A DNA stretch of 64,000 nucleotides from Escherichia coli (GTDB lineage Bacteria > Pseudomonadota > Gammaproteobacteria > Enterobacterales > Enterobacteriaceae): NCBI RefSeq assembly GCF_003334815.1, contig NZ_QOWO01000010.1. One strand, 5' to 3'. Position numbers and translations under genes: made by a program. Under the pieces are notes generated by a model. It had not been told where the DNA came from, did no database searches, and saw nothing but the letters and a program-made list of their open reading frames with translations. This document shows, in pieces, positions 14,777 through 52,922 of this stretch (positions within the stretch are counted from its first letter, which is position 1; each line of letters begins with the position of its first letter).

Positions 14777-14969
14777 GATCACCGTAATATTGCCGGATGG
14801 TGACGATTACGCGCAATCCGGCAATAATAGGTTACAGTGTCACGTTTTTTATCTCTTAAAGCACGCACTGCTTTTGCGGCTGGCCTCTTTTGCCGCAAAA
14901 TAGTCGCCCGTGTTTCATTGCCCATTTCTGCTCATGCATCATCTACACATCTATCCGGATCTGCGCACT

Positions 14970-16226
14970 ATGTTCCGCCGTCTGCTTATCGCAACAGTCG
15001 TCGGTATTCTCGCGGCCTCTGCCGTTGCCGGGTTTCGTCATGCGATGCTGCTACTGGAGTGGTTGTTCCTCAATAATGACTCCGGCAGTCTGGTCAATGC
15101 AGCGACAAACCTTTCCCCCTGGCGACGGTTGCTAACTCCGGCGCTCGGCGGACTGGCGGCGGGTTTGTTGCTGATGGGCTGGCAGAAATTTACCCAACAA
15201 CGCCCTCATGCGCCGACCGATTATATGGAAGCGTTGCAAACCGATGGACAGTTCGATTACGCAGCAAGCCTGGTTAAATCGCTTGCCTCTCTGCTGGTAG
15301 TAACCAGCGGCAGTGCAATTGGTCGCGAAGGTGCGATGATTCTTTTAGCTGCCCTTGCCGCCTCCTGTTTTGCCCAACGTTTTACGCCACGCCAGGAGTG
15401 GAAATTATGGATCGCCTGTGGGGCCGCGGCGGGAATGGCTGCGGCCTATCGTGCCCCGCTTGCTGGCAGTTTATTTATAGCCGAAGTGCTGTTTGGCACT
15501 ATGATGTTGGCCTCTCTCGGCCCGGTGATTATTTCCGCCGTCGTGGCATTGCTGGTTAGCAATCTGATTAATCATAGCGACGCGTTACTCTACAACGTAC
15601 AACTCTCAGTGACGGTTCAGGCTCGTGACTATGCGCTGATTATCAGTACAGGTGTGCTGGCAGGTCTGTGCGGACCACTGTTGTTAACGTTAATGAACGC
15701 CTGTCATCGTGGATTTGTGAGTCTCAAACTTGCGCCGCCCTGGCAACTGGCACTAGGCGGGTTGATCGTGGGTCTGCTTTCCCTGTTCACACCTGCAGTG
15801 TGGGGCAACGGCTATAGCACCGTACAATCCTTTTTAACCGCCCCACCACTGTTAATGATCATTGCCGGGATCTTCCTTTGTAAACTGTGTGCCGTGCTGG
15901 CGAGTAGCGGTTCCGGCGCACCCGGTGGGGTCTTTACACCGACGCTATTTATCGGTCTTGCCATTGGCATGTTGTATGGTCGTAGCCTGGGATTATGGTT
16001 CCCTGATGGCGAAGAAATTACACTTTTACTCGGATTGACCGGGATGGCGACACTGTTGGCGGCGACCACGCACGCGCCGATTATGTCGACGTTGATGATA
16101 TGTGAAATGACCGGGGAGTATCAGCTACTCCCCGGTTTATTGATTGCCTGCGTAATTGCGTCGGTAATTTCGCGGACGTTACACCGTGACTCTATCTACC
16201 GCCAGCACACTGCGCAGCATAGCTAA
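14970..16226 (+). CDS. clcB: ClC-family voltage-gated chloride channel / H+-Cl- antiporter
   Basis: ORF 14910..16226 trimmed to the ATG at 14970 ([11 protein letters not shown], 418 aa). ClC signature GREGAM and a polytopic profile. Confidence 0.85.
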
Positions 16227-16874
16227 GCGGATGTATTGCCCCAGTTCACGCTGTTCGGCGCGCGGCAGATAAGGCAGTTCACCAATGAGCGGTGCCGGAA
16301 GTTTTTTACCCAGCACATCAATGATTTCCGCATAATGCGCCAGTCCTGGGTTGATTCGGTTAGCCACCCAGCCAATGAGCGGCAGCCCGTCGTTGGCGAT
16401 CGCCTGAGCTGTTAGCAGTGCATGGTTAATGCAACCTTCCTGAATACCGACAACCATCAACACCGGCAGTTGTTCCTGCACTACCCATTCAGAGAGTGGA
16501 CGCAAATCATTCATCAGACTGCGCCAGCCGCCAGTCCCTTCTACCACGACATGATCGACTTTTTCGGTCAGGTTTGCCAGGCCGTTTGAAATGAGGGTGT
16601 AATTGATTGGGCAACTGTGCGCCACGCTACTTTCTTCTTCGCTTAACGCGATAGGATTAACTGCTTCATAAGGCAGTTCGATGGTTGAAACACTCTGCAA
16701 CACCAGGGCATCTTTATTACGCAGCCCTTCGGGTGTCTCTTTGCTCCCCTTCGCTACGGGTTTATATCCCGCAACCGTTTTTCCCTGGGAGGCTAACGCT
16801 TGTAGCAATGCGCGGGAAACCACCGTTTTCCCTACAGAAGTGTCTGTACCGGTAATAAAGAAACGCTTCAGCAT
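16179..16874 (-). CDS. ynfK: Dethiobiotin synthetase paralog (BioD2)
   Basis: ORF 16179..16886 trimmed to the ATG at 16872-16874 ([17 protein letters not shown], 231 aa). P-loop GTDTSVGKT. Its 3' end overlaps the clcB 3' end convergently. Confidence 0.85.
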
Positions 16875-16998
16875 CACTAACTCCACCGTTATGCTTCACA
16901 AATATAAACCAGGAAAATAATTAACCTTGAAAGTCTAAGTTATGCTTTCCTGGCCCAAATTGAGATAGCGCAAATTTTGGTAGAACAGTTAAAAAATG

Positions 16999-18219
16999 TT
17001 AACCCTGCAACAGACGAATCAACAAAGAACCGTTATACATCGCGTCTTTTACCAGTGCAGCGCCTGCCATCGTGCCCTGGTTAGAAAACTGAGTACTCTC
17101 AACGCTGATGTGCTGACTATACGCAGGAAGGGCCTGCTGACGGATGCTGTCTGAGATGACCGGGAAGAGGATATCTGCCGCTTTACTTAACGGTGAGCCA
17201 ATCAGTATTTTTTGTGGGTTAAATAAATTCACCATGATGGCAAGAATGCGCCCGACATGCGCGCCCACCCCGGTAATGATGTCTTTTGCCAGTAGATCGC
17301 CGCGCAATGCCGCCTGACACAATGAGTCCACGGTTAACGGTTGTCCATGTAACATCGAGCTCATGGATTGATTAAGACGCAGCTGTGCCAGCTCAAGAAT
17401 ACTGTCCACGCTGGCGATGGTTTCGAGGCAGCCGTGATTCCCGCAATAACAGCGTTTCCCATACGGGTCGACCTGTGTGTGGCCTATTTCCACGAGACTA
17501 CTGCTGCCTGCGTGTAGCAGATGACCATCGGTAATGACGCCCGCCCCCACGTTGTGATCGATAACCACCTGAATCACATCGCGCGCCCCGCGTGAGGCAC
17601 CAAACAAGGCCTCTGCCATCGTCCATGCGCTGATATCATGCTGAATATAAACCGGAACGCCGGTATGCTGCTCCAGCGCCTCGCCGAGCGGCATCTCTTT
17701 TACATCCTCGTAGAACGGCATGCGATGTACAATACCATTTTCCGTATCAATAATTCCCGGCAAGGTTATGGCAATCGAAGTTAGACGCTCAAGTTTTTTC
17801 TGGTGGCGGATAAAAAACTGATCGATATGGGAAATAATACGATCCAGCAATGGCAAGTCATCTTTTAACGCCAGTTCCTGCGACTCTTCCACCACCAGTT
17901 TGCTGCTCAGATCGCGCAGAGCAAGGAAAATCTCCCCGCGACTAATGCGCAGAGAAAGATAGTGCCAGGCTTCAGTTTCAACCACCAGCCCCACCGCCGG
18001 ACGGCCACGGTTCCCCGCTTCTTTGATTTCCAGCTCTTGCACCAGGTGTGCTTCGAGCATCTCACGGACAATTTTAGTGATACTGGCAGGAGCCAGTTGC
18101 GCCAGACGGGAAAGATCGATACGCGAGACTGGACCAAGCTGATCAATCAGGCGATAAACCGCGCCCGCGTTGGTCTGCTTTATTTGATCAATGTGCCCAG
18201 GCTGGTTTTCAGCAACCAC
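16999..18219 (-). CDS. mlc: ROK-family global transcriptional repressor of PTS and sugar-uptake genes
   Basis: 406-aa ORF with an N-terminal HTH and a ROK sugar-kinase-like fold with Zn-binding Cys/His (CYCGNHGC). Confidence 0.9.
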   Translation of the reverse strand: MVAENQPGHIDQIKQTNAGAVYRLIDQLGPVSRIDLSRLAQLAPASITKIVREMLEAHLVQELEIKEAGNRGRPAVGLVVETEAWHYLSLRISRGEIFLALRDLSSKLVVEESQELALKDDLPLLDRIISHIDQFFIRHQKKLERLTSIAITLPGIIDTENGIVHRMPFYEDVKEMPLGEALEQHTGVPVYIQHDISAWTMAEALFGASRGARDVIQVVIDHNVGAGVITDGHLLHAGSSSLVEIGHTQVDPYGKRCYCGNHGCLETIASVDSILELAQLRLNQSMSSMLHGQPLTVDSLCQAALRGDLLAKDIITGVGAHVGRILAIMVNLFNPQKILIGSPLSKAADILFPVISDSIRQQALPAYSQHISVESTQFSNQGTMAGAALVKDAMYNGSLLIRLLQG

Positions 18220-20607: not shown

Positions 20608-20913
20608 AAAATAAGTCCGGACTGCGGTAAATACCCGTCCGGACTTATTGCCAGCTCAAACCAACGTTAATAGCCATCCTAAAATAGACGAAGCGCCAGC
20701 CAATTCCCGCAGCGCGTCTAGCGTCATCAGGATTATAAGTACCCAAATAAACGGATTCATTTTGCTGTGTGTCATTTATTACTGATGCGCAGTTATTCTA
20801 CTGCTTTGTAAGTAGTAAAATAGTTAACCCGATCAAGACTACTATTATTGGTAGCTAAATTTCCCTTAAGTCACAATACGTTATTATCAACGCTGTAATT
20901 TATTCAGCGTTTG

Positions 20914-41015: not shown

Positions 41016-41026
41016 TTCACGGCCAA

Positions 41027-41058
41027 AACGCCGGAGAATTTTCACTCCGGCGTTTTCA
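41027..41058 (+). terminator. Rho-independent terminator after ydgA
   Basis: Stem CGCCGGAG/CTCCGGCG followed by TTTTCATC. Confidence 0.6.
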
Positions 41059-41207: not shown

Positions 41208-41242
41208 AACGCCGGAGATTTTTCTCTCCGGCGTTATTTTTT
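41208..41242. terminator. Hairpin plus T-run at the uidC 3' end (bidirectional terminator candidate)
   Basis: Stem CGCCGGAGA/TCTCCGGCG followed by TTATTTTTT. Nearly identical to the hairpin at 41027-41058. Confidence 0.5.
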
Positions 41243-46707: not shown

Positions 46708-46927
46708 TAAACCATTATAGTTAGCGTGAATAACTAGTTTACCGCGTTGTCAGGTGAGCGCCTATCATTGCTGTTGAATAGTGCGAAGGCACACTCTATT
46801 CGTATACTTTTCACTCTGAAATTGGTTAACCAATAGCCGTGATTTGGCTGCCAGTTATTTAGCAGAGACGTTGATGAGTTTATCCCGGTAAACAACACGC
46901 ACGGTTGTTTACCGGTCCGTTAGTGTA

Positions 46928-52889: not shown

Positions 52890-52892
52890 CAA

Positions 52893-52920
52893 AATGGATG
52901 GTGCAAATGCACCATCCATT
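52893..52920. terminator. Bidirectional hairpin terminator between convergent add and ydgJ
   Basis: Perfect stem AATGGATGGTGCA/TGCACCATCCATT flanked by A-run and T-run, exactly between the two stop codons (add 52887-52889, ydgJ 52923-52925). Confidence 0.65.
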
Positions 52921-52922
52921 TT

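Follow-up and report, generated by a model that had tools for sequence, protein, structure and literature searches.

The convergent clcB–ynfK overlap of the Enterobacteriaceae and a conserved hairpin within clcB as candidate 3′-end element of ynfK

Our analysis of a 64,000-nucleotide stretch of the Escherichia coli chromosome (the window; gene order ynfH-dmsD-clcB >< ynfK-mlc) leads us to an explanation that we hold, on balance, to be probable: clcB and ynfK form an ancient, fixed tail-to-tail overlap of two functional genes, and a ynfK 3′-end hairpin is encoded in the codons of clcB. As the arrangement leaves no intergenic space, the putative 3′-end stem-loop of ynfK would have been written into clcB codons 381–389 by the choice of specific synonymous codons. 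The overlap itself is already known and stands in the public annotation; the putative ynfK 3′-end hairpin embedded in clcB adds one modest case to a kind of element that is already known.

Results

The two reading frames are mirror images over 48 bp

The features of the locus are collected in Table 1. In the list of open reading frames, that of ynfK spans 16179-16886 and that of clcB ends at 16226. Sequence, open reading frames and the RefSeq annotation of K-12 agree on the 48-bp convergent overlap that the original prediction had proposed: in NC_000913.3, clcB occupies 1665315-1666571 (+) and bidA, as ynfK is now called, 1666524-1667219 (−), with an identical 48-bp overlap (window coordinate = K-12 coordinate − 1650345). 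The plus strand of 16179-16226 reads TTA CAC CGT GAC TCT ATC TAC CGC CAG CAC ACT GCG CAG CAT AGC TAA. The ClcB and YnfK frames are antiparallel and in exact codon register, position 2 facing position 2, so that each TAA stop mirrors a Leu TTA codon of the opposite gene. The mirror frame of the clcB 3′ end contains few stops. Among the database relatives of YnfK that were listed, the name given is dethiobiotin synthase.

Table 1. Features of the clcB–ynfK locus. Positions are those of the window.
Feature	Position	Strand	Description	Source
clcB CDS	14970..16226	+	418 aa; TAA stop 16224-16226	ORF; RefSeq K-12 b1592
clcB product			CLC-family Cl−/H+ antiporter paralog of ClcA	phmmer vs ClcA structures, E ~1e-26
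ynfK (= bidA) CDS	16179..16874	−	231 aa; TAA stop 16181-16179	ORF; RefSeq b1593
ynfK product			BioD-type dethiobiotin synthetase paralog	homologs with PF13500/PF01656, 231 aa
Dual-coding convergent overlap	16179..16226	both	48 bp; ClcB L404-S418 + stop, YnfK L217-V231 + stop	
ClcB Tyr410 codon (TAC)	16197..16199	+	inside the overlap; aligns with ClcA Tyr445	
Perfect 11-bp GC-rich hairpin	16110..16136	−	ACCGGGGAGTA / TACTCCCCGGT, 5-nt loop; candidate ynfK 3′-end hairpin, possibly bidirectional	
Published Rho termination region	16169 (K-12 1666514)	−	'primary: ynfK; antisense: clcB'	PMC7815308 Supplementary file 2

A 601-bp region of this locus was found in 5421 of the 5426 complete E. coli genomes, always under clcB and a bioD-type CDS. 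Within it, the 131 bp that contain both overlap and hairpin are at least 99% identical in 5224 of these complete genomes, whereas the enclosing 601 bp reach this identity in only 2284.

Both stop positions are conserved across the Enterobacteriaceae

We retrieved the ynfK locus from 80 GTDB species genomes, which together with the window gave 81 sequences, and located both stop codons in each. Examined in this way in related genomes, both stop positions are conserved across the Enterobacteriaceae, and more so than by chance. The convergent overlap is present in 65 of the 81 sequences, with lengths of 27, 39, 45, 48 or 66 bp; these are always multiples of three, so the codon register is constant. 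The genera that carry it include Escherichia, Salmonella, Citrobacter, Klebsiella, Raoultella, Kluyvera, Enterobacter, Leclercia and Buttiauxella. YnfK stops at the same codon, giving a protein of 231 aa, in 80/80 genomes, the clcB-less ones included, and 231 aa is by far the commonest length among the close YnfK database relatives listed, all of which are at least 86% identical. The end of ClcB shifts between genomes only in so far as the overlap ranges from 27 to 66 bp, always in frame, and the shortest forms of the protein (27-bp overlap) terminate with S-I-Y-R or S-I-Y-H, one codon past Tyr410. Neither a conserved earlier stop nor a shorter homologue, the two findings that would have spoken for one gene ending earlier, was encountered in the 80 GTDB genomes.

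The shared segment encodes constrained residues of ClcB and of YnfK

The overlap covers an essential part of ClcB, because Tyr410, which is aligned to ClcA Tyr445, lies within it. We take the latter residue to be the central chloride-coordinating tyrosine of established CLC structural work. The alignment of ClcB with ClcA is gapless, residue 402 being placed at 437 (for chain 1kpl, 7-410 align with 38-445). According to the codon tables, Tyr410 is invariant in 61/61 genomes, and the D407-S-I-Y410 segment is conserved at 89-100%. YnfK Val226, which faces the ClcB Tyr codon TAC, is GTA in 55/55 genomes; Arg228, facing the ClcB Ser codon TCT/TCG, is AGA or CGA; and ClcB Leu404, which faces the ynfK stop, is TTA or CTA only. 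The mirror register over the 48 bp thus imposes rare codons on both genes, namely Arg AGA/CGA and Val GTA on YnfK and Leu TTA/CTA on ClcB.

In seven genomes (four of Kosakonia type, Pseudescherichia, Intestinirhabdus and one Enterobacter sp.), clcB is missing without trace. There, the YnfK tail retains its length and the motif [AV]DR[IV]xA (in full [AV]-D-R-[IV]-L-A and the stop), the YnfK Arg codons, elsewhere AGA/CGA, have relaxed to CGY, and TGA serves as the ynfK stop. Because length and motif persist without clcB while the codons are relaxed, the tail is kept for YnfK's own sake. We also considered that its conservation might be a mere shadow of ClcB D-S-I-Y; this was rejected as the sole cause, given that D-R and the length persist without clcB. 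There is, then, protein-level selection on both tails within the overlap. These data establish that both proteins run to their annotated stops and that residues under constraint in each of them, including ClcB helix-R Y410 and YnfK V-D-R, are encoded by the 48 bp they share.

Distant BioD-family proteins, whose tails were taken from protein representatives, have unrelated and variable tails past a Y-[IL]-x-L motif (E. coli BioD was used solely to mark the end of the BioD core). Likewise, a 65%-identical homologue with the same ynfL-mlc-ynfK synteny but without clcB carries an unrelated tail. The 11-residue tail of YnfK past the BioD core would have arisen when ynfK grew into the sequence antisense to the 3′ end of clcB, presumably in an ancestor of the core Enterobacteriaceae, and would later have become useful in its own right.

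A hairpin inside clcB is under selection

The hairpin (Table 1) is formed by clcB codons 381-389 (T G E Y Q L L P G) and lies 42 nt beyond the stop codon of ynfK. It is the dominant structure in the folded ynfK 3′ region (z = −2.7 for a 121-nt context), with a mean dG of ∼−17.5 kcal/mol over 62 sequences. About eight perfect hairpins of such size occur in the 64-kb window, as compared with ∼0.4 expected in random sequence by our own arithmetic. Across the 62 distinct sequences, 92.8% of the stem cells are paired, versus 19-44% in slid controls. One stem pair covaries (CG in 35, GC in 19 sequences) through a Glu383Gln replacement combined with a synonymous change of Leu387; this is a single pair with few independent events, for which relatedness alone can beat the shuffle control.

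Codon choice provided the strongest evidence. Of 171 conserved clcB codons with at least four synonymous alternatives (median synonymous entropy, 1.61 bits), only Thr381 (ACC) and Pro388 (CCC) showed zero variation, each in 61/61 genomes; both are in the stem, and their third positions pair with bases that are fixed by the protein. Gly382 is GGG or GGA in 60/61 genomes. The 9-bp core of the stem is 97.1% paired in minus-strand RNA versus 89.2% in plus-strand RNA, and through G-U wobbles 46 cells of this core pair only in the minus-strand (ynfK) RNA versus two only in the plus-strand RNA. Taken together, these results show that the hairpin is a selected structure.

The fate of the hairpin in genomes that have lost clcB was followed in the same data set. 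A 3′ clcB fragment of 56-109 codons, with overlap and hairpin included, is kept in four genomes, and essentially the hairpin alone is retained in five, 8-26 nt past the ynfK stop. Its being kept beside ynfK after the loss of clcB ties the hairpin to ynfK. In two of these five, the Citrobacter genomes L013 and L016, a new run of 7-8 U follows the hairpin on the ynfK strand; to judge by sequence, hairpin and U-tract are a textbook intrinsic terminator. We infer that the hairpins of the clcB-less genomes probably descend from the clcB hairpin. The remaining clcB-less genomes have different GC-rich hairpins after ynfK.

Mode and strand of termination

On the minus strand the stem is followed by CAUUUCAC, which is dictated by the ClcB peptide C-E-M, and the first 8 nt contain three U in 58/65 sequences and two in 7/65. 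With only 3 U in 8 nt, the hairpin is not a canonical intrinsic terminator on the ynfK strand, and a consensus terminator scan made no call at the hairpin on the minus strand. As to the features of intrinsic terminators on this strand, the GC-rich stem-loop is present and the U-rich tract is found only in the clcB-less L013 and L016. On the plus strand, 4-5 of the 8 nt after the stem are T(U) in 60/65 sequences, versus 2-3 on the minus strand. In addition, Leu390, which adjoins the stem, is TTA or TTG in 85% of the genomes, the strongest such preference among 39 conserved Leu codons (median, 19%). From the U-richness of the plus strand and the Leu390 bias it follows that the selected function could lie on the plus strand or on both, and the element may be bidirectional.

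The original prediction held that the overlap leaves no room for a terminator. This is right in that there is no intergenic space, but a conserved 11-bp hairpin lies inside clcB and published mapping places a Rho termination region at the 3′ end of ynfK (Adams et al., 2021; PMC7815308). In that study, reads upstream/downstream were 85/11 in untreated and 292/159 in bicyclomycin-treated cells, which gave a Rho score of 4.2 (p = 1.5e-6) at K-12 1666514 on the minus strand; the coordinate derives from 800-nt windows, falls ∼32 nt before the hairpin and is of regional resolution. ynfK does not figure at all in the curated list of Term-seq 3′ ends of PMC7815308, probably as a result of low aerobic expression, and no mapped RNA 3′ end at the hairpin emerged from the published data considered. 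According to Dar and Sorek (2018; PMC6061677), Rho-dependent transcripts typically end just past stable stem-loops without a U-tract, which protect them from exonucleases. The C:G ratio of the minus strand is 1.2-1.5 over the first ∼300 nt past the hairpin versus 1.05 for the whole clcB antisense, i.e. weakly rut-like.

A clcB terminator inside ynfK was not detected: plus-strand RNA of 16200-16360 is less structured than its shuffles (z = +1.56). Towards the 3′ end of ynfK, the codon tables contain no frozen synonymous codons. A scan of 15800-17000 against Rfam returned nothing at the gathering threshold; its sole match, SR6_antitoxin (23.2 bits versus a gathering threshold of 55, E = 0.28), is a hairpin-driven chance hit.

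Antisense RNA at the locus

A full-length ClcB mRNA and a full-length YnfK mRNA are complementary over at least 48 nt. That the two transcripts, where both genes are expressed, would be antisense to each other, as had been predicted, follows from the conserved stops and accords with published per-gene RNA levels (Huang et al., 2020; PMC7373196 Table S1c). The sense/antisense values for clcB are 4.62/3.61 RPM in the wild type, 3.32/3.85 in rnc-14 and 4.96/4.96 in rnc-38; those for ynfK are 19.66/1.34, 27.06/0.90 and 14.14/1.49 respectively. Antisense RNA is hence about as abundant as sense RNA over clcB, consistent with read-out from ynfK, and amounts to 5-10% of sense over ynfK. Double-stranded RNA captured by p19 was 8-21 RPM for clcB and 8-31 RPM for ynfK (PMC7373196).

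Coupled expression of the two genes, which had also been suggested, finds no support in these aerobic per-gene data, given the low p19-captured dsRNA and the inconsistent effect of RNase III: no consistent change in the sense level of either gene was seen in rnc-14 and rnc-38, in a table without replicates. ynfK is directly activated by FNR (PMC3688515). Since the expression data are all aerobic, they may understate convergent transcription.

Discussion

In the explanation we favour, transcription leaving ynfK would pass the hairpin and most likely be stopped, for the most part, by Rho acting on the untranslated antisense-clcB RNA. The hairpin would then define and protect the ynfK 3′ end, and it may add weak intrinsic or bidirectional termination. 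The clcB and ynfK mRNAs would accordingly be complementary over at least ∼117 nt (16110-16226), not 48. Should this duplex couple the regulation of the two genes at all, the effect is probably small at the low aerobic expression levels.

Several other readings were weighed against this one. To the possibility that the overlap is an annotation artefact, in which one gene ends earlier and the shared segment is untranslated on one strand, we assign a vanishingly small probability. A mirrored antisense frame is naturally poor in stops, which would suit an artefact, but an earlier in-frame stop is lacking by definition, both ends are kept in 65 sequences, YnfK measures 231 aa in each of the 80 genomes, as it does in most listed relatives, the YnfK tail outlives clcB, and the overlap contains ClcB Tyr410. 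Misannotation of either stop was rejected on the conservation of the stops in the 80 GTDB genomes and the window. It is also very unlikely that the hairpin has no function at the nucleic acid level, its palindromy being a by-product of a conserved CLC peptide (E-M-T-G-x-Y-x-L-L-P-G) and codon bias. This peptide is indeed conserved and aligns with EMTDNYQLILP of ClcA; the stem positions are mostly first and second codon positions, which the protein fixes, and covariation is confined to one pair. However, the protein cannot account for ACC and CCC in 61/61 genomes at third positions that pair with protein-fixed bases; by our own calculation, the chance that both frozen columns (2/171), if placed at random, fall among the six eligible stem codons is ∼0.001. 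Nor does a by-product explain why Glu383Gln is matched by a synonymous Leu387 change or why the hairpin persists where clcB is gone, and this reading is already disfavoured.

Whether the hairpin serves mainly the plus strand, as a latent intragenic or bidirectional intrinsic terminator directed against untranslated clcB-sense transcription, is harder to dismiss, and we regard it as possible though doubtful. The consensus scan does call a terminator-like site on the plus strand, a 12-pair stem followed by TATTGATTGC; the greater number of T residues after the stem on this strand (4-5 per 8 nt in 60/65 sequences versus 2-3) and the TTA/TTG preference at Leu390 (85% versus a median of 19%) agree with such a role, as do 29 apical wobble cells that pair only on the plus strand and the low level of antisense RNA over ynfK. 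Yet the wobbles of the 9-bp core favour the minus strand (46 cells versus two), after clcB loss the hairpin stays by ynfK and, in L013 and L016, gains a U-tract on the strand of ynfK, and a terminator 87 nt before the clcB stop would generate non-stop mRNAs. A stop at this position would precede antisense entry into ynfK and mlc, and would be masked when ribosomes translate clcB; plus-strand activity is compatible with our preferred explanation. A model built on the original prediction, with no terminator at all and with reciprocal, excludon-like coupling that would arise when RNase III cuts the duplex or converging polymerases collide, appears unlikely. Complementarity of the mRNAs is unavoidable, antisense equals sense over clcB (4.62/3.61 RPM in the wild type), some p19-captured dsRNA (8-31 RPM) is present on both genes, activation of ynfK by FNR (PMC3688515) may raise convergent transcription under anaerobic conditions, and collision at stem-loops between convergent genes has been proposed as a termination mechanism (bioRxiv 10.1101/2022.10.23.513370). 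Against this model, a selected hairpin and a Rho termination region exist, and sense levels vary inconsistently in rnc-14/rnc-38 (clcB from 4.62 to 3.32/4.96 and ynfK from 19.7 to 27.1/14.1 RPM). [quoted passage not shown] A bolder proposal, which we think quite improbable, would have the hairpin act as a stop or collision site programmed for both directions. In anaerobic cells, with ynfK driven by FNR, expression of clcB and of ynfK would then each depend on the other, clcB translation melting the hairpin that is needed for ynfK 3′-end formation, and the reverse. The YnfK tail would be a peptide born de novo, by overprinting on sequence antisense to the CLC helix-R motif, and would have gained its own function later.

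Since the overlap is in the reference annotation, it changes nothing by itself, and clcB/ynfK is an ordinary but neatly constrained gene overlap. What the locus offers is the packing of three layers into ∼120 bp, two proteins in mirror register over 48 bp and a stem-loop specified through the synonymous choices of the neighbouring gene. It provides a natural example of how a terminator can be accommodated when convergent genes overlap, of how deletion of one partner releases constraints on the other (codons relax and a U-tract appears), and of a C-terminal extension that was probably born by overprinting. In practical terms, 3′-end formation of ynfK/bidA is likely to suffer when clcB is recoded or deleted, as may happen in genome-recoding projects and in knockout collections.

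With excludons, which are defined by overlapping UTR transcription and mutually exclusive expression (ExcludonFinder, PMC12288877), clcB and ynfK share the arrangement of opposite-strand neighbours whose transcripts must overlap. They differ in that the available data reveal neither reciprocal expression nor RNase III dependence, and in that the overlap is one of coding 3′ ends rather than of a long UTR with the neighbouring gene. Parallels exist with bidirectional terminators (Ju, Li and Liu, 2019; Wang et al., 2022, bioRxiv 10.1101/2022.10.23.513370): in either case two convergent genes have one stem-loop, which both polymerases meet, the clcB/ynfK hairpin has an A-rich flank and, opposite to it, a modestly U-rich one, and the stem-loop could position head-on collisions. 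In contrast to that class, which is described as Rho-independent and is intergenic, the hairpin is located 87 nt inside clcB, and Rho dependence at ynfK has been published.

The ynfK element also resembles the protective 3′ stem-loops of PMC6061677 in being a stable GC-rich stem-loop without a U-tract soon after the stop codon of a gene with Rho-dependent read-through. Relative to those stem-loops, the candidate 3′-end element of ynfK is distinct in that it lies inside the coding sequence of a convergent gene and is maintained by synonymous codons. As for the overlap, conserved convergent overlaps have been catalogued before (Rogozin et al., 2002; Palleja, Harrington and Bork, 2008, PMC2478687); they account for 7% of overlaps, and credible long cases are confined to this orientation (PMC2478687). 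Like these, clcB and ynfK are bona fide opposite-strand genes that share their 3′ ends, with a probable 3′ extension of one gene and conservation across species. At 48 bp the clcB/ynfK overlap is shorter than the > 60 bp class studied there, and whereas most of the putatively real long overlaps of PMC2478687 occur only in very close species, that of clcB and ynfK is conserved across the Enterobacteriaceae.

Codon choice beside the clcB hairpin

On the + strand, the GC-rich 11-bp hairpin within clcB is followed directly by Leu390. Comparison of clcB codons showed that this residue is encoded by TTA or TTG in 85% of 61 genomes (TTA alone, 61%), which is the strongest TTA/TTG bias among the 39 conserved Leu codons of the gene (median, 19%). 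These codons make the tail U-rich on the clcB strand or place an A-tract upstream of the stem on the ynfK strand; read in the ynfK frame, TTA at Leu390 is also a second in-frame TAA. An Rfam search returned a weak SR6_antitoxin match spanning the hairpin, at 23.2 bits where the gathering score is 55 (E = 0.28). It was judged a coincidental resemblance to a stem of terminator-like form.

The length of the ClcB C-terminus differs between lineages among the compared loci. In Superficieibacter and one Escherichia lineage, the protein is cut short directly after S-I-Y-[RH], and the overlap is 27 bp. ClcB of Enterobacter, Leclercia and Pseudenterobacter is six residues longer (...REIDVLR*), and this extension lengthens the overlap with ynfK to 66 bp.

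Features in the window and overlaps in the compared ynfK loci (L-numbers)
Feature	Window position	Loci	Remarks
clcB codons 390-392	16137-16145
SR6_antitoxin match	16080-16139 (-)
ynfK codon 4 (Arg4)	16863-16865
Inverted repeat, 14 nt	14785-14829		TAATATTGCCGGAT / ATCCGGCAATAATA; 17-nt spacer; 93% complementary
Promoter-like site	14800-14828		overlapped by the 14-nt repeat
Further perfect inverted repeats, 11-15 nt	52891-52922, 20610-20649, 41025-41056, 41208-41235, 46885-46915, 63948-63974		short spacers
clcB/ynfK overlap, 27 bp		L003, L064, L071
clcB/ynfK overlap, 66 bp		L031, L035, L040, L047, L048, L057, L061, L062, L066, L070, L076, L077, L080

Inverted repeats elsewhere in the window

The 195 bp that separate the dmsD stop (14776) from the start of clcB (14970) contain the 14-nt inverted repeat, which may be the terminator of the ynfEFGH-dmsD operon or a regulatory site of clcB. 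The six further perfect repeats are presumably terminators or operator sites; those at 41025 and 41208 have the core AACGCCGGAG in common.

The ynfK 5′ end and neighbourhood

Arg4 of YnfK is encoded by CGT in 60/60 genomes, and is the sole conserved ynfK codon with at least four synonymous alternatives that exhibits zero synonymous variation. A requirement of translation initiation or of 5′ mRNA structure may explain this fixation.

Locus L036, an mlc-ynfK><clcB locus typical of Enterobacteriaceae, comes from a contig (CACSKA010000003.1) entitled 'Chryseobacterium sp. 18061'. The YnfK encoded there shares 88% identity with that of E. coli, and mislabelling or contamination of the assembly is probable.

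Five loci (L013, L016, L032, L059 and L073; about 3750-5200) lack the ynf-dmsD-clcB block; there, the gene downstream of ynfK is convergent to it and ends ...ISQDYIADYLSSGRTRRALNI... In the more distant locus L082, a co-directional permease gene comes first, and a convergent gene of the ABC_tran+CBS ATPase type lies further downstream. This may represent the older ynfK neighbourhood.
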